Source of the DNA: Candidatus Levyibacteriota bacterium
GTDB taxonomy: Bacteria; Patescibacteriota; Microgenomatia; Levybacterales; GWA1-39-11
Length of the DNA stretch: 31,732 bases
NCBI GenBank assembly: GCA_041910135.1
Contig: JAYRRJ010000107.1
Coordinates: 1-31,732 of the forward strand
Direction of reading: 5' to 3'
Below the pieces are notes generated by a model. The model saw nothing but the letters and a program-made list of their open reading frames with translations, had not been told where the DNA came from and ran no database searches. Each line of letters starts with the position of its first letter. Positions within the stretch are counted from its first letter, which is position 1. The translations under genes were made by a program, and so were the position numbers. Below, piece after piece: positions 24,660 to 31,732 of this stretch.

Positions 24660-27023
24660 ATGTATTACAGCAGGCTTAGAAGGACGTCTCAAAGACGACG
24701 GTCTTCATTCTTTTCCACCAAGGCAGCTTTTTTAGAAGCACGGCTTGCGAAATTCGCATTCTTCGGGCTTATTGGTATTATTGTCTTGGGGTTTTTATAT
24801 GTTCTGTGGGTGAGCCGTGATTTGCCGACACCCGGAAGGCTTGCTAACGGCAACATAAAGGATTCGACCCGTATTCTTGACAAGAACGGGAAGCTCCTTT
24901 ACTCTTTTTATAAGGATTACAACCGTATTTATGTTCCTCTGGATCAAATTCCCCAAAATTTAAGAAACGGCACTATTGCCACTGAGGATAAAGACTTTTA
25001 CCGCAATAAAGGTTTTTCGTTGACGGGAATGTTTCGAGGAGTAATTCTCGACCCGCTTTTTAGAAAGCGTGCTACGGGAGGCTCTACTATTACACAGCAG
25101 TTAGTAAAAATTGCACTTCTCACTTCTGAAAGAAGTATTACCCGTAAGTTGAAAGAATTGATACTTGCAGTCCAGGTCGATAGCAGGTATTCAAAAGATC
25201 AGATACTTGAGATGTATCTAAACAACATTCCTTACGGAGGAACCGCTGTTGGAATTGAAGCGGCGAGTAACTTGTACTTCAACAAGCACGCAAAAGATTT
25301 GACTCTTGCCGAAAGCGCATTTCTTGCAGGTCTTCCGCAGCTGCCGACGTATTATTCACCTTATTCTAATCCGGATAAGACATACATCGGCCGTTCTGAG
25401 GATGTCTTGAATAGGATGAAAAGCGAAGGATATATCTCTCAAAAACAAGTTGATGAAAGCCTTAAGACTATTAAAGAATTCACTTTCAAAGAGCGCCGCA
25501 CAGAAGCGATAAAAGCTCCCCATTTTGTGATGTACGTTAGGCAACAGGTAGCAGATATGTTCGGAGAAAATTACGTAAACAATGGGAATCTTACCATTAA
25601 GACTACCCTTGATTCGGACATCCAAAGCGATGCCGAGGATATCGTCAGCAAAGAATTTGAGAACTTCAAAAATTACAAAGTAAAAAATGCAGCCGTTATG
25701 GTTTTGAATGTTAAGACCGGAGGTATTCTGGCAATGATAGGAAGCCGAGATTATTTTAATGAAGACATTGATGGTCAATTCAACGCAGCCACCTCTCTTC
25801 GTCAACCGGGTTCGTCTCTCAAGCCCATTATGTATGCCACTGCCTTTGAAAAAGGTTACACTCCCGCTACACTTGTCATGGATGTAAAAACTGACTTTCC
25901 GGTCAATGACGGGACAGGGAACAATAATGTCTACACACCCGTAAACTACGATGGAAAATACCGGGGGCCTGTACAATTACGGTTTGCTTTAGGAAATTCG
26001 CTCAACGTTCCGGCTGTTAAAATGCTTGCCAGGGTAGGTGTTAAACCTGTCATGCAAAAAGCATATGACATGGGAATTTCAAATTGGGAGCCAACGAATG
26101 ATCACTTAAAGAATGTCGGACTGTCTCTGGTTCTTGGAGGACGAGAAGCTTCTTTGGTTCAGATAACCTCAGCATATTCGGTTTTTGCCAGGGCAGGACA
26201 AAAGAAAGAAACGTTCGGTATTGAGGAGGTAGACGATACACATGGGAAAGTATTATACAAACATCAAGACAAAGGTGAGCAGCAGATCCTCTCGAAGGAA
26301 GTTTCATTTTTAATTTCTCATATTTTGCTTGACAATAATGCAAGAGCGGACGCATTTGGCTCAAGTTCGTGGCTTGTTGTGCCGGGTAGAACCGTTGCGG
26401 TTAAGACAGGAACAACCGACCAAAAACGCGACAACTGGACTATCGGATATACTCCCTCGTATGCTGTGGGCGTATGGGTGGGAAACAATGATAACACTCC
26501 ACTCGACCCGAGGATTGCATCCGGTATTACGGGAGCGTCTCCTATATGGAATAAGGTTATGAGCAGGGTTTTGAAAGGAACCCCGAAAGAGGAATTTCAA
26601 AAACCTGACAATGTCATTGACAAACAAATCGATGCATTCTCCGGCGGACTTCCAATTGACGGTCAGTCAACTCGCGTTGAATATTTTGTAAAAGGAACCG
26701 AGCCTACAACCAAGTCGCCTGTCTATAAGACACTCAAGATGTCAAGGCATGATGGGGGGAAACTTGCTTCAGACGAAGAGATGTCAAGAAATGATTATGA
26801 CACTATGGATGTAATTAATTTCATTGAGGATGACCCTGTTTCAACAGATGGAAAAAATAGATGGCAGGAGGCAATTGACGCGTGGGTTGGAGAACACTAT
26901 AAAGACGATGGAAAATACAAAAGACCAACGGAAAAGTCTAATTATCATTACGACAATAACAATAATAATCCGACACCTACTCCCACTCCAACTGAAAGTC
27001 CGACACCTACTCCAACTCCTTGA
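24660..27023 (+). CDS. Class A (bifunctional) penicillin-binding protein, PBP1A family
   Basis: TM anchor, transglycosylase motifs ATEDKDFY, GGSTITQQLVK, RKLKE, LEMYLN, and transpeptidase motifs SSLK (SxxK), SLN (SxN), KTGT. Start ATG 24660 preferred over the ORF-track start inside the NUDIX gene. Confidence 0.95.
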   Translation: MYYSRLRRTSQRRRSSFFSTKAAFLEARLAKFAFFGLIGIIVLGFLYVLWVSRDLPTPGRLANGNIKDSTRILDKNGKLLYSFYKDYNRIYVPLDQIPQNLRNGTIATEDKDFYRNKGFSLTGMFRGVILDPLFRKRATGGSTITQQLVKIALLTSERSITRKLKELILAVQVDSRYSKDQILEMYLNNIPYGGTAVGIEAASNLYFNKHAKDLTLAESAFLAGLPQLPTYYSPYSNPDKTYIGRSEDVLNRMKSEGYISQKQVDESLKTIKEFTFKERRTEAIKAPHFVMYVRQQVADMFGENYVNNGNLTIKTTLDSDIQSDAEDIVSKEFENFKNYKVKNAAVMVLNVKTGGILAMIGSRDYFNEDIDGQFNAATSLRQPGSSLKPIMYATAFEKGYTPATLVMDVKTDFPVNDGTGNNNVYTPVNYDGKYRGPVQLRFALGNSLNVPAVKMLARVGVKPVMQKAYDMGISNWEPTNDHLKNVGLSLVLGGREASLVQITSAYSVFARAGQKKETFGIEEVDDTHGKVLYKHQDKGEQQILSKEVSFLISHILLDNNARADAFGSSSWLVVPGRTVAVKTGTTDQKRDNWTIGYTPSYAVGVWVGNNDNTPLDPRIASGITGASPIWNKVMSRVLKGTPKEEFQKPDNVIDKQIDAFSGGLPIDGQSTRVEYFVKGTEPTTKSPVYKTLKMSRHDGGKLASDEEMSRNDYDTMDVINFIEDDPVSTDGKNRWQEAIDAWVGEHYKDDGKYKRPTEKSNYHYDNNNNNPTPTPTPTESPTPTPTP
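26959..27020 (+). repeat. Low-complexity coding repeat (Asn run plus Pro-Thr tail)
   Basis: NNNNNPTPTPTPTESPTPTPTP, with ccgacacctactcc occurring twice in the DNA. Confidence 0.8.
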
Positions 27024-28093: not shown

Positions 28094-28138
28094 TCTTTTT
28101 TGCTCGCTTCAAAACAGTTAATTTGCTATAGTAATAGT

Positions 28139-28936
28139 ATGTTACGAAAGGCTGTAGTCGTTCTATTTCTACTCTTATTTTTTCTTCCGTTACCTTCTCT
28201 TTATGCTCAGTCCCCAACTCCGCGTCAAGAAGTGGATGGCGCTGCGACTTTAGGTGTAGCCCATATGGTGGAAGTCGCCAAGAAGGACGTGCCGGATGGG
28301 AGCATCCTTTCTTCCGGTTCGAAAGGAGCGGTACAAACTGTTATTCCTTACGATTCACAGACGCTCGGTGTGGTGTCGCGAGACGCAGCAATAATTTTTA
28401 GTACCAAAAACGACGCAAATCAGGTTCCGGTTATTTCCACCGGCGCGGTTTATGTGCTCGTTTCTTCGAGAGATGGAAATATTAAGAAGGGAGATCTTCT
28501 TACATCCTCAACAATTCCCGGCGTTGCAGTGAAGGCCACCAAGGAAGGGTTTGTTTTGGGAAGCGCGATGGAAGATTACTCAAATACCGATAAGAAAAAA
28601 ATAGATAAGATTGCGGTCAACCTTGACCTGCATTACTTTAATTCAAAACCAACATTTCCAGGTACGCTTTCCGACGTTTTTAAGCTGGTTTTGCTGCCAA
28701 CAAAAGAAGGTCCGAATCCTGTTTTCAAATACATAATGGCGGGGCTCGTTGTGCTGGGTTCGATGATTCTTGCCTTCCTAAGCTTTGGACGGGCAGCAGC
28801 AAAAGGCGTGGAAGCGTTGGGACGCAATCCGGCAGCAAGCCGGATAATTCATTTGGGGATTATCTTCAACGTTACAATTGTTGTTGCTATAGCGGCAGCG
28901 GGCCTTGTTGTTGCTTTTTTAATACTTCGTTTGTAA
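28139..28936 (+). CDS. Exported beta-rich domain fused to an ATP-synthase c-subunit-like C-terminal hairpin
   Basis: Signal peptide (LYA-QS), soluble domain with GNIKKGDLLTSSTIPGVAVKA, then two TM helices around GVEALGRNP, resembling the c-subunit R(N/Q)P loop. ATG 28139 is 6 nt after TGc-TATAGT. Confidence 0.75.
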   Translation: MLRKAVVVLFLLLFFLPLPSLYAQSPTPRQEVDGAATLGVAHMVEVAKKDVPDGSILSSGSKGAVQTVIPYDSQTLGVVSRDAAIIFSTKNDANQVPVISTGAVYVLVSSRDGNIKKGDLLTSSTIPGVAVKATKEGFVLGSAMEDYSNTDKKKIDKIAVNLDLHYFNSKPTFPGTLSDVFKLVLLPTKEGPNPVFKYIMAGLVVLGSMILAFLSFGRAAAKGVEALGRNPAASRIIHLGIIFNVTIVVAIAAAGLVVAFLILRL

Positions 28937-29053
28937 TGGCAAATGTTATGGGATGAAAACTTTTTAAGAGCATGACTTACTACAGGCTTGTCAGCTTCAA
29001 ATTAGTTTCTTGCCCCTTCACATTTGCCAAAAATTCCCCTACTATATATGTAT

Positions 29054-29788
29054 ATGCCTGCCCTGCTCTTTCAGGTTATAACTGTAGTGTTTGACCTCTC
29101 GGTCATAGTTTTCGTTGCAGTGTACGTATTGGGTGTCAGGAAGAAGGAACGCGATGCTAATAGAAAAGAAGGAAAAATTGAACATGATTACCAAGCTGTT
29201 GTCGAACAAAGCAGAACAACAGAGCGGCAAATAATTGATAACGCCGTGTCTCAATCAAACCAAATGATGCAAGTTGCAACACATCAAGCAAATCAAATTC
29301 TCGCCGGTACTCAATTTATAACCCAGTCAACAAAAGCCACACTCGATGCGGCTTTGCAAAAAATGGTTGTTGAGGTGCAAAACACAGGCTCCAACTCAAA
29401 AATTGCACTTGAACAAAACCTCCAAAAAATTATTAACGATGTTCACAAGGAAGCATTCAACTCCGGAAACGAGGCGGCTTCCAATTATCAGGCATCATTG
29501 CGTCAAATAACTTCTGTTTCTTTAACCGGGTTTCAGAATGTTACAAACCAGCTTGAGTTGTCCCTCCAACAGCAAATAAAAGAGTTTAGAACCACCCTTC
29601 TTTCAAATTTGGAAAAAGAGATGGAAAGTTATAAATTGTCAAAAATTCATAGGATTGACCAGGCTGCAAGCATAATTGTGCAACGAGTAGCTCAGGAAGT
29701 TCTGAATAAATCCTTGAGCCTAGAAGATCATCAAAACCTCGTAATCCAATCTCTTGAAAAAGCAAAAAAGGAAGGAGTATTTGACTGA
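29054..29788 (+). CDS. ATP synthase b-subunit-like protein (elongated)
   Basis: N-terminal TM helix, long coiled coil, C-terminal VAQEVLNKSLSLEDHQNLVIQSL resembling a b C-terminus, upstream of delta- and alpha-like genes. Start chosen from TTCACA-17-TACTAT (29017-29045). Confidence 0.7.
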   Translation: MPALLFQVITVVFDLSVIVFVAVYVLGVRKKERDANRKEGKIEHDYQAVVEQSRTTERQIIDNAVSQSNQMMQVATHQANQILAGTQFITQSTKATLDAALQKMVVEVQNTGSNSKIALEQNLQKIINDVHKEAFNSGNEAASNYQASLRQITSVSLTGFQNVTNQLELSLQQQIKEFRTTLLSNLEKEMESYKLSKIHRIDQAASIIVQRVAQEVLNKSLSLEDHQNLVIQSLEKAKKEGVFD

Positions 29789-29815: not shown

Positions 29816-30349
29816 ATGGAAACAATTGATTTGTCAGATCTATTTCACACCAAAGCTCAGGCGGATGATTTTTCCTTTAGGTTAGCTGAAATTGGAAAAA
29901 AGCTTTTTGAGACCAATTTTAATCCCGAGAGCGCTTTACTTGAACACTTTGGTATTAAGAAAAAAGATACATTCATGACACTTCTTCGTAATAATAACGT
30001 AAATCCCGAGTCCAGACTTGCAATTAAGGAGTTTATAGAAAAAATTCAGCAAAAAATATCCTCTCTGTCCGTTCTTTCAATCATTCTCGCTTTTGAACCG
30101 AATGAAGCAATTCTCCGGTCGTTATCCGCTTGGTTCGTGCTTAATACAAAAAAACAGGTTCTTTTTGATATTTCGGTTGATAAAGGGCTTATCGGGGGTG
30201 CTGCTATATACTCAAACGGAAAATATTTGGATTTTTCTATCCGTTCGGCTTTCTTTACCGCGGCAAACGAAATTTCGGTTATGAACGGCTTGGTTGGGTC
30301 CGGTGAACAAAACAAAACGGCGCTTTCCAAGGCAGTCAGCTCGTCATGA
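29816..30349 (+). CDS. ATP synthase delta (OSCP)-like protein
   Basis: C-terminal VDKGLIGGAAIYSNGKYLDFSIR matches the delta/OSCP motif (VDPSLIGG...D.S.R). The N-terminal half is divergent. Confidence 0.75.
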   Translation: METIDLSDLFHTKAQADDFSFRLAEIGKKLFETNFNPESALLEHFGIKKKDTFMTLLRNNNVNPESRLAIKEFIEKIQQKISSLSVLSIILAFEPNEAILRSLSAWFVLNTKKQVLFDISVDKGLIGGAAIYSNGKYLDFSIRSAFFTAANEISVMNGLVGSGEQNKTALSKAVSSS

Positions 30350-31732
30350 ATAATGAATTTCAGACACTTTTACAGAAAGCCGGTGAATACGGTATAGTCT
30401 ATCAGGTAAGTCATCCTATTGTTTTTATTGAAGGCTTGCCAAAAGTAAAAACTCACGAGGTTATACTATTTGAGACCGGACAAAAAGCAGAGGTGTTCAC
30501 CATTAACAGAGGCAAGATTGAGGCCAGGGTTTTTTCGCATGAACCCGTCAGGGTTGGCACCATGGTGACGCGTACCGGGCAAATTCTTGCGGTACCTGTC
30601 GGAAACGAGCTTTTGGGGCACACCATAAATCCCCTCGGGGAGCCTCTCGACCCTTCTGTTAAATACACCAAGCCTGCTGCATCCCGAGACATGGATGCAA
30701 AACCAATAGGAATCTCAGGAAGGCAAAAGATTACGAAACATTTGGTCACGGGCATTTCTCTCATCGATCTTCTCGTGCCTTTGGGCCGTGGTCAGCGGGA
30801 GCTTATTATCGGAGATAGAAAGACGGGGAAGACATCGGTTCTTATGACCACGATAAAGAGCCAAATTTTCGAAGGAAACGTTGTTATATATGGGGCAATT
30901 GCAAAAAAGAAAAGTGATATTAAAAGACTTCAGGAATTTTTCGAGGAGGAAAAAATCATGGATAAAATTATCATTGTTGCTACAAGCTCGTATGACTCGC
31001 CCACCCTTATTTATCAGACTCCCTATGCTGCGATGACAATTGCGGAATATTTTAGGGACCAGGGAATAAATACGATAGTTGTCCTCGACGACCTTTCAAA
31101 TCACGCAAAATTTTACCGCGAATTGTCTCTTCTGGCACGCCGATTCCCGGGGCGTGATTCGTATCCGGGAGATATTTTTTATGCCCATTCCAAATTGCTT
31201 GAGAGGGCCGGAAATTTCAAGCACCCAAAAACGGGAGAGGTCGCAATAACATGTCTTCCGGTTATTGAAATTATTGAAGGTGATTTTACCGGATATATCT
31301 CCACCAATGTTATGGGAATTACCGATGGACACATTTATCTTGACGCGAATATCTATTATCAAGGCATGCGCCCGGCCGTAAACATTCCACTTTCGGTTAC
31401 AAGGGTCGGAAGACAGACATTGGACAAGTTGTCTCGGGACATTAATAAAGACCTTACCGCGTTTCTTACCGAGTACAACAGGCTCCAAAATATCTCCCAT
31501 TTCGGGCAAGAGTTAACGGATGATGTAAAAAAGAACCTGCGTCTTGGGGAGTTGATAAATAAATTCTTCAGCCAACCGTATGAAGAAATAATTCCGCAGA
31601 AAGTACAGATTGTTATTATTTCTCTTATTCTTCAAAATGTTATTCAAACGAAAGAAGAACTTGAGGAAACGAAAAAATTTCTTATTGCCATATACTACGA
31701 CCGGGCGAGACAAAAAATACTGTATGATATTA
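30346..31732 (+). CDS. atpA: F1 ATPase alpha-subunit homolog, divergent, truncated by the window end (absent from the ORF track)
   Basis: Translated by hand from ATG 30346 (ATGA overlap): MNNEFQTLL..., VPVGNELLGHTINPLGEPLD, LVPLGRGQRELIIGDRKTGKT (Walker A), VVLDDLSNHAKFYRELSLLARRFPGRDSYPGDIFYAHSKLLERAG, STNVMGITDGHIYL, RPAVNIPLSVTRVG. No stop before 31732. Confidence 0.92.
   Translation, partial: MNNEFQTLLQKAGEYGIVYQVSHPIVFIEGLPKVKTHEVILFETGQKAEVFTINRGKIEARVFSHEPVRVGTMVTRTGQILAVPVGNELLGHTINPLGEPLDPSVKYTKPAASRDMDAKPIGISGRQKITKHLVTGISLIDLLVPLGRGQRELIIGDRKTGKTSVLMTTIKSQIFEGNVVIYGAIAKKKSDIKRLQEFFEEEKIMDKIIIVATSSYDSPTLIYQTPYAAMTIAEYFRDQGINTIVVLDDLSNHAKFYRELSLLARRFPGRDSYPGDIFYAHSKLLERAGNFKHPKTGEVAITCLPVIEIIEGDFTGYISTNVMGITDGHIYLDANIYYQGMRPAVNIPLSVTRVGRQTLDKLSRDINKDLTAFLTEYNRLQNISHFGQELTDDVKKNLRLGELINKFFSQPYEEIIPQKVQIVIISLILQNVIQTKEELEETKKFLIAIYYDRARQKILYDI

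Follow-up and report, generated by a model that had tools for sequence, protein, structure and literature searches.

A subunit c-like hairpin without the ion-binding carboxylate, fused to an exported phage-fibre-type domain, heads an F1-like ATPase gene cluster in Patescibacteria

F-type ATPases are the standard case of rotary catalysis coupled to ion flow. To our knowledge, exceptions without an ion path have been described only in mycoplasmas, namely the F1-like X0 enzymes. Here, we describe a gene cluster of Candidatus Levyibacteriota bacterium (Patescibacteria, or candidate phyla radiation, CPR) that can be set beside these enzymes. It lies at the end of contig JAYRRJ010000107.1 of assembly GCA_041910135.1, all 31,732 nucleotides (nt) of which were analysed (the window). 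The first gene of the cluster encodes a protein, here called c-like, in which a signal peptide and an exported beta domain precede a helical hairpin that is homologous to F-type subunit c and free of the ion-binding carboxylate. We think it probable that the cluster encodes a second F1-like ATPase, which has no ion path, consumes ATP and acts at the cell surface.

Among the mycoplasma F1-like X0 ATPases, Type 2, which drives gliding in M. mobile, acts together with giant surface proteins, and Type 3 (MSC_0618-0624 / MMCAP2_0575-0581) is needed for the MIB-MIP antibody-cleavage system (PMC3369863, PMC12994834, PMC8406192). Their describers considered these enzymes unique to mycoplasmas, with no equivalent in other bacteria. 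The CPR cluster is likewise a second alpha/beta/gamma/epsilon set that, in a host-dependent bacterium with a reduced genome, accompanies a true F1Fo operon. In both cases subunit a is missing, and the hydrolysis of ATP presumably supports a task at the cell surface. 'Protein 5' of Type 3 and the c-like protein also share an outline: a signal peptide is followed by a large domain, and a short loop connects two transmembrane (TM) helices at the C-terminus. In contrast, the CPR sequences stay under the cut-offs of the mycoplasma models (score/cut-off for MSC_0618 beta 389/570, MSC_0619 alpha 270/520, MMOB1660 355/600 and MMOB1670 373/850), and CPR alpha and beta score lower against these models than against atpA and atpD. 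The mycoplasma seven-gene clusters encode a 12-TM protein and have no delta, b or recognisable c, whereas the CPR cluster has delta, a b-like protein and a c hairpin and no 12-TM protein. Of the systems described so far, these mycoplasma enzymes come closest; they are alike in logic and belong to different sequence families.

Two further systems invite comparison. Canonical F1Fo operons (atpIBEFHAGDC) share with the CPR cluster the gene order from c onward, a homologous hairpin with an R-N/Q-P loop and the F1 catalytic residues. Unlike them, the CPR cluster has no subunit a, no carboxylate, no Gly packing motif and no C-terminal helices in epsilon. Its c-like protein adds a signal peptide and a 130-amino-acid (aa) outer domain, its alpha and gamma fall under the equivalog cut-offs, and its alpha and beta form a separate clade. 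N-ATPases (TIGR03322/03324/03305) are likewise extra, early-branching F-type operons that stand beside a canonical one, but they keep subunit a, a carboxylate-bearing c and AtpQ/R, have no separate delta and follow another gene order. Against the N-ATPase cut-offs, the CPR proteins reach 12.8/131 (c), 345/750 (alpha) and 412/752 (beta). In the literature searched, including a 2026 preprint on rotary-ATPase evolution that samples CPR beta subunits, we found no description of the CPR c-like system.

The c-like gene and its parts are as follows (all in the window, forward strand).

28139..28936, +: c-like fusion gene, an intact open reading frame (ORF) of 265 aa plus stop; putative membrane subunit of a second F1-like ATPase
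28139..28207, +: signal peptide, residues 1-23 (MLRK, a hydrophobic core, then LYA, followed by Q)
28250..28639, +: exported beta domain, residues 38-167
28718..28930, +: c-subunit-like helical hairpin, residues 194-264, from hhalign and fold matches
28823..28831, +: cytoplasmic loop Arg229-Asn230-Pro231, corresponding to the R-Q/N-P loop through which canonical c touches gamma and epsilon
28868..28870, +: Asn244, the sole conserved polar residue inside helix 2
28883..28885, +: Val249, at the position of the ion-binding carboxylate of canonical c (Arg229+20)

Homology of the hairpin to F-type subunit c is well supported. Using hhalign, a profile of 22 hairpins matched five canonical c subunits (the genome's own, those of three CPR relatives and that of E. 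coli) with a probability of 95.1% and an E-value of 3e-8. When a profile of 118 homologues was compared with all PDB sequences, c subunits were the only matches, and the alignments covered helix 1 and all of helix 2 without gaps. Foldseek superposed the hairpin on solved c subunits with TM-scores of 0.76-0.87, root-mean-square deviations (rmsd) of 1.2-1.7 Å and 29-31% identity; the values for 9itt_I are 0.87, 1.2 Å and 29%. In a structure search independent of Foldseek, many c subunits matched with Z about 10. All 118 homologues have the R-N-P loop without variation, the canonical c subunits of the same genome and of relatives likewise read GRNP, and Gly255 is kept in 116 of the 118. An earlier note on this DNA had likened the C-terminus to the c-subunit hairpin, and the profile and fold comparisons bear it out. 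By score thresholds, the c-like protein is nevertheless outside the curated subunit c family. As a single sequence it reaches 11.1 bits against PF00137, below the cut-off of 24, and the NCBIfam subunit C models give at best an E-value of 5.4e-6 and at most 26.4 bits against cut-offs of 85-131.

The same note had observed that the residue 20 positions after the loop Arg is Val, that the last helix contains neither Asp nor Glu and that the GxGxG packing motif is missing. All three observations extend beyond the one protein. Val249 aligns gap-free with the Glu of solved c subunits, and its position is Ile, Val, Leu, Phe or Met across the 118 homologues (30-64% identity). Residues 239-265 are devoid of Asp and Glu in the c-like protein and in all of these homologues. 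A further 79 hairpins from the genomes of other species agree with the homologues in this lack, in the hydrophobic residue at position 249 and in the R-N-P loop, two apparent exceptions being artefacts of the regular expression that fell in the outer domain. Since the carboxylate is absent family-wide, its loss is ancient and kept by selection, and no sign of decay. Position 244 is Asn in 106 of the homologues, His in ten and Ser in two. In helix 1, the columns of the canonical Gly motif hold Leu, Ser, Phe and Gly, and F213 and F216 are conserved.

A partner for an ion-translocating ring is missing as well. The window contains no subunit a (PF00119). The host genome (1.08 Mb in 168 contigs, about 90% complete) has a single a gene, which sits in a canonical operon with the order atpB-E-F-H-A-G-D-C on contig C81, separate from the c-like cluster. 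Here, atpB is partial at the contig end, atpE encodes 80 aa with the Glu, and atpC encodes 145 aa. This operon also answers the question, raised by the earlier note, whether the genome holds a separate canonical atpB and atpE. Among about 40 sampled genomes with a c-like gene, a PF00119 a subunit is present in 18 and absent from 22; the underlying tally of 207 genomes includes the unpublished genome G154, on which no claim rests. Even at E<=10, no subunit a was found in G352, G245, G198 (single-contig), G181 (near-complete, ten contigs) and G022. In G352, G245, G198 and G181, no c exceeds the Pfam cut-off, and the sole alpha/beta pair adjoins the c-like gene. It follows from these genomes, which have only the c-like set, that the complex takes no Fo parts from an ATP synthase encoded alongside it. 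Because this set is the sole F-type ATPase in several complete CPR genomes, metabolic reconstructions that list an 'ATP synthase' there are probably wrong. Besides its c-like F1 set, G022 encodes a V/A-type ATPase (G022:C1 438000-443300) whose c/K subunit is duplicated into two hairpins; an F-type a is lacking.

When the non-F1 neighbours of 80 loci were clustered, neither a further recurrent membrane partner nor an a-like family emerged, although these loci were not scanned with PF00119. The TM helix of the b-like protein was considered as a stand-in for subunit a and dropped, as it has no conserved charged or Arg residue. Given the established F-type mechanism, the lack of both the carboxylate and subunit a implies that there is no ion path. 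Without an ion path, the complex could neither synthesise ATP from a gradient nor pump ions, and would only consume ATP.

The earlier note had placed the c-like gene at the head of an ATPase cluster. Indeed, the genes for a b-like protein, a delta-like subunit and alpha lie directly downstream in the window, and those for gamma, beta and epsilon are on contig C56 of the same genome (G000).

29024..29788, +: b-like protein of the peripheral stalk, 254 aa, with a single TM helix at the N-terminus ahead of a long helical region, assigned by gene-order position
29816..30349, +: delta (OSCP)-like subunit, 177 aa; PF00213 E 2.9e-6, above cut-off, and TIGR01145 E 4.8e-6, below cut-off
30346..31731, +: divergent F1 alpha, cut by the contig end; PF00006 E 1e-66
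G000:C56 (L007), 116-1003: gamma; PF00231 E 2e-23
G000:C56 (L007), 1016-2542: beta; PF00006 E 6e-63
G000:C56 (L007), 2551-2847: epsilon, 98 aa, beta-sandwich domain only
G000:C56 (L007), 3253 onward: start of a giant fibre gene

The b-like protein has no Pfam match above threshold. The arrangement of the genes recurs across many CPR lineages. We fetched 80 loci, of which 78 have a callable c-like gene and 66 extend at least 3.5 kb downstream. In 64 of the 66, alpha follows, and the order is c-like, b, delta, alpha, gamma, beta, epsilon. Linkage of homologues to F1 genes, on which the earlier note had staked its reading, is thus the rule. The median length of epsilon is 89 aa (52 loci), again with the beta-sandwich only.

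Against the NCBIfam equivalog models, the canonical subunits exceed the cut-offs, whereas F1-like alpha and gamma stay below them and F1-like beta lies just above.

Alpha (atpA): canonical 725, F1-like 385, cut-off 484
Beta (atpD): canonical 785, F1-like 472, cut-off 463
Gamma: canonical 217, F1-like 63, cut-off 194

The F1-like alpha is short by about 40 aa, which does not explain its deficit of 100 bits. We rooted a maximum-likelihood tree of the alpha and beta sequences of 12 genomes and E. coli reciprocally, and in it F1-like alpha and F1-like beta each form one clade (SH-like approximate likelihood ratio test, SH-aLRT, 96 and 97). Each of these clades is sister to the clade of canonical CPR and E. 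coli sequences (99 and 97). The tree rules out a recent duplicate of the resident atp operon. By this tree, F1-like alpha and beta represent either an old separate lineage or a fast-evolving one. The catalytic residues are kept in 12 of 12 members, both in beta (Walker A, GG[AS]GVGKT, and the Glu-Arg motif GER.REG) and in alpha (the Arg finger, SV[ST]RVG).

Relatives of the c-like protein are widespread. A database clustered at 90% identity holds 570 relatives of near-equal length, some of them labelled 'subunit c' by JGI. An exhaustive search of a library clustered at 50% identity returned 4820 matches, 140 of them at E<=1e-30, and the best 150 are almost all full-length. Of 401 genomes sampled evenly over the phylum, about 40 carry a full-length copy. 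Searched as an exact word, the loop sequence EALGRNPLA revealed a relative in 232 species of the GTDB species genomes. Credibly named carriers are Roizman-, Levy- and Shapirobacteria, WWE3, Microgenomates and Saccharimonadales; the label 'Gammaproteobacteria' on many third-party assemblies is an evident placeholder and was not trusted. The exhaustive search also contained fused forms of 390-538 aa with a helix-turn-helix (HTH) and a TM segment, and in five relatives (P0200, P0242, P0250, P0265 and P0267) such an HTH-TM module replaces the signal peptide. No protein of more than 465 aa ending in a c-like hairpin turned up, which is weak evidence only.

The exported part of the c-like protein is an addition to the canonical c subunit. 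AlphaFold2, supplied with the 118 homologues, modelled the protein with a mean predicted local distance difference test (pLDDT) of 89. The model consists of the beta domain (residues 38-167, pLDDT above 90), a poorly ordered linker, in which residues 177-184 form a short helix, and the two helices of the hairpin (194-229 and 231-264). Of the signal peptide and the soluble domain of about 170 aa described in the earlier note, the former stands; A23 and Q24 are kept among close homologues. The latter does not hold as one domain, since the folded part spans about 130 aa and the remainder is linker.

The best structural match of the beta domain is the C-terminal fragment of phi29 gp12, 3gqh_A, with Z 14.3 and an rmsd of 2.4 Å over 113 residues (model 39-163 against gp12 692-854), in a search that was independent of Foldseek and covered 48,161 chains. 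This fragment is a tail-spike autochaperone (PDB 3gqh). Next come capsid cement or fibre-base proteins of HFTV1, Sf11, BB1, TW1 and XM1 (gp53), and phi29 gp8.5 (N-base 6qyy), whose base is a homotrimer from which a fibre rises (6qyy). The top Z values among the autochaperone and fibre-base structures are 14.3, 12.3 and 11.7. The top match in BFVD has an E-value of 3.5e-11, and one structural neighbour cluster in the Atlas consists to 97% of PF11962. At the sequence level, PF11962 (Peptidase_G2) gives no match to the c-like protein at E<=1, and PF23982 stays below threshold (E 0.003, 17.7 bits against a cut-off of 27). By its model, the outer domain shares the fold of the gp12 autochaperone and of trimeric phage fibre-base and capsid-cement proteins, in keeping with the earlier guess of a phage-tail or surface protein. 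In phi29 gp12 and the fibre-base proteins, the fold belongs to trimers at the base of a fibre. In the c-like protein it is instead tethered to a c-type hairpin, an arrangement that we did not find in the literature searched.

The neighbourhood of the cluster offers a possible target for such a domain. Among the non-F1 neighbours, one family of giant proteins occurs in 50 of the 80 loci, and the runner-up family in only 20. The giants start with a MerR/HTH_17-type domain (34 of 53 ORFs, many of the others being truncated), have a single TM helix near residue 150 and continue with fibre-like repeats over thousands of residues. It is this HTH-TM module that replaces the signal peptide in the c-like variants mentioned above. 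As an HTH of cytoplasmic type is followed by one TM helix and then by the fibre, the giants should be oriented N-in, C-out. The DNA-binding-type fold at their cytoplasmic end may be a docking module. In the Levyibacteriota genome, the giant begins 400 bp past epsilon on C56 (L042 3253-4032; MerR_1 E 6e-7), and a fragment on contig C19 is probably its C-terminal end. On C19 lies a copy of the outer domain, with 43% identity over 87 aa and an E-value of 1e-36 in a hidden Markov model search. Giants further carry phage-fibre chaperone or cement domains, of which Peptidase_S74 is found at E 1e-13 and Peptidase_G2 and Phage_cement_2 remain below threshold. In the 401-genome sample, the outer domain is present in 189 genomes, mostly within ORFs of 1000-6900 aa.

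Taken together, we consider it probable that the cluster encodes a second F1-like ATPase without an ion path, which consumes ATP and acts at the cell surface. The earlier note had proposed an ion-incompetent complex powered by F1 hydrolysis, and this fits the lack of subunit a beside the cluster and in several complete relatives, the intact catalytic residues and an epsilon without inhibitory helices. In our model, the signal peptide would export the c-like protein, so that the hairpin resides in the membrane with its RNP loop toward the cytoplasm, and the phage-fibre-base or autochaperone-type domain would be placed on the outer face. An oligomer of hairpins, probably a ring, would stand in for the c-ring beneath gamma and epsilon, and alpha3beta3 would be held by delta and the membrane-anchored b-like stalk. 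ATP would most likely be hydrolysed, and torque or force transmitted through the c-like oligomer to the outer domains. These, in turn, would probably act on, or hold, the giant membrane-anchored fibres encoded beside the cluster. We infer ring formation, rotation and contact with the fibres from the parts described above.

In its most specific form, the model has F1 spinning a ring, or a 3n-mer, of ion-blind hairpins whose outer trimer-forming domains hold or drive the giant fibres. We put this forward as a speculative and rather unlikely version. If true, it would describe a new rotary cell-surface organelle of ultra-small episymbiotic bacteria, used for attachment, motility or manipulation of the host surface, and the first F-type rotor that serves as a transmembrane drive shaft and not as an ion turbine.

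Several observations weigh against a surface-acting rotary complex. The c-like gene stands without adjacent F1 genes in L059 (a WWE3 genome) and in G148:C4 (L038), and the G245 lineage has neither b nor delta. The bulky Phe and Leu of helix 1 in place of the Gly motif mean that the assembly may not be a classical ring. A stator without subunit a has no evident fixed partner, as the TM helix of the b-like protein contains no conserved polar residue. In the HTH-TM variants, each subunit would bring an extra N-terminal TM helix and a cytoplasmic HTH, which makes free rotation past the stator harder to picture. The link to the fibres is also incomplete. We had considered the shared domain a universal trait of the neighbouring giants and rejected this, as it was undetected in the cluster-adjacent giants of 3119-6535 aa of four genomes of two other families (G352, G181, G057 and G022; families f57 and f35). 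Co-evolution of the outer domain of the c-like protein with the giants' copy of the same genome was likewise rejected; the two form separate groups, and pairs from the same locus are not nearest neighbours.

The main alternative is a non-rotary platform for assembly or export, in which the giant fibres would fold, trimerise, insert or be released at the expense of ATP hydrolysed by the F1-like ATPase. FliH/FliI/FliJ of type III secretion would be the analogy, and the autochaperone-like domain, tethered to the membrane, would serve as the template in trans. Such a platform would suit an outer domain that is closest to the C-terminal autochaperone of phi29 gp12, giants that carry intramolecular-chaperone-type domains of their own (Peptidase_S74), the tight linkage of giant genes to the cluster, and a helix 1 too bulky for a classical open ring. 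It is harder to reconcile with the full rotor-stator set that has been retained (gamma, epsilon, delta and the b-like stalk), with the N-terminal signal anchor of the giants, from which use of Sec is expected, and with the many adjacent giants that do not share the domain. By analogy, we regard this platform as possible, though doubtful.

A cryptic ion-translocating ATPase or synthase, which would pass H+ or Na+ via Asn/His244 and Thr/Ser248 with the help of an unrecognised channel partner, is very unlikely. The near-invariant Asn244 (or His) is one turn from the carboxylate position, and Thr or Ser is common at 248. Yet none of about 200 hairpins has a carboxylate, and PF00119 finds no match at E<=10 where the c-like set is the only F-type set. 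No multi-TM neighbour recurs, and the TM helix of the b-like protein is without a conserved Arg or acidic residue. Among characterised c and K rings, we know of none that works without a carboxylate. Lastly, that the hairpin is a mere anchor of a surface protein, with a coincidental likeness to c and a coincidental position, or that the cluster is a decaying atp duplicate, is highly improbable, because the sub-threshold PF00137 score of the single sequence and the middling Z of helical hairpins with many unrelated proteins are outweighed by the hhalign match (95%, E 3e-8), the invariant RNP, the 64/66 synteny over species that are 30-60% identical, ORFs and catalytic residues that are intact in all members examined, separate and well-supported alpha/beta clades, and complete genomes in which this is the sole F-type set.

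The ATP-consuming, surface-acting F1-like ATPase that we favour would be a second, independent and much more widespread repurposing of an F-type enzyme than that of the mycoplasmas, present in roughly a tenth of the 401 Patescibacteria genomes sampled. Since the whole rotor-stator set is kept together with a recognisable c hairpin, the system would provide the cleanest natural test of an ion-uncoupled F-type rotor. Linked as it is to giant, phage-fibre-like surface proteins, the cluster suggests an energised apparatus on the surface of bacteria about whose attachment to hosts little is known.

The expression of the c-like gene can be considered from its flanks. One further element lies upstream.

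28124..28132, +: extended -10 promoter-like element, TGcTATAGT, read from the sequence; it ends 6 nt 5' of the ATG

A scan for promoter consensus sequences did not flag this element. The alternative upstream start is a TTG at 28100, which would add 13 aa relative to the ATG. With an extended -10 only 6 nt before it, the ATG at 28139 is favoured as the start and the mRNA would be leaderless. As far as the element can be trusted, the transcript of the c-like gene is probably leaderless and the ATG its start. Within the last 45 nt of the coding sequence, at 28891-28925 of the window, lies a terminator-like hairpin of 11 pairs followed by TTTTTAAT, and a promoter-like site at 29017-29045 precedes the b-like gene. 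With this internal terminator-like hairpin and the promoter-like site of the b-like gene, output of the c-like gene could exceed that of the genes that follow, a surplus that a ring subunit present in many copies would require.

On the 5' side, the cluster is preceded by genes for a GH130 phosphorylase and PBP1A. A functional linkage of these genes was dropped, since none of the 80 loci contains a homologue of either, and GH130 was found before the c-like gene in 0 of 72; the adjacency is local. The PBP1A-type protein (24528-27023 of the window) carries an Asn run and a (Pro-Thr)n tail at its C-terminus, and its listed ORF, which starts with TTG at 24528, overlaps the end of an upstream ORF of 167 aa (24119-24622).

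Some further observations concern the neighbours of the c-like gene in other genomes. The giants of L031, L035-L038 and L150-L154 measure 3000-6500 aa or more, and in G022 the HTH domain is present in two copies. In G148 (L038), the lone c-like gene still adjoins HTH-giant genes. In L032 (G245:C1, about 1050000-1058600), alpha directly follows the c-like gene, and a fibre protein of 1501 aa lies upstream on the same strand, with a Peptidase_S74 chaperone domain and without an HTH. In L043 (16442-20689, minus strand), a fragment of 1415 aa of a convergent giant ORF by the cluster matches PF02899 in two stretches (E 2e-17) and also contains a Peptidase_G2-like domain. This mixture of a SAM-like N-terminal domain of phage integrases and a Peptidase_G2-like domain is either odd for an extracellular fibre or reflects two genes read as one. 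In the Levyibacteriota genome itself, two tandem paralogues of about 820 aa lie just upstream of the C-terminal fragment of the giant (L040 6221-11207, G000:C19). They have N-terminal TM segments, and their C-terminal tails are near-identical (...GGTTIQGGTTIQ).

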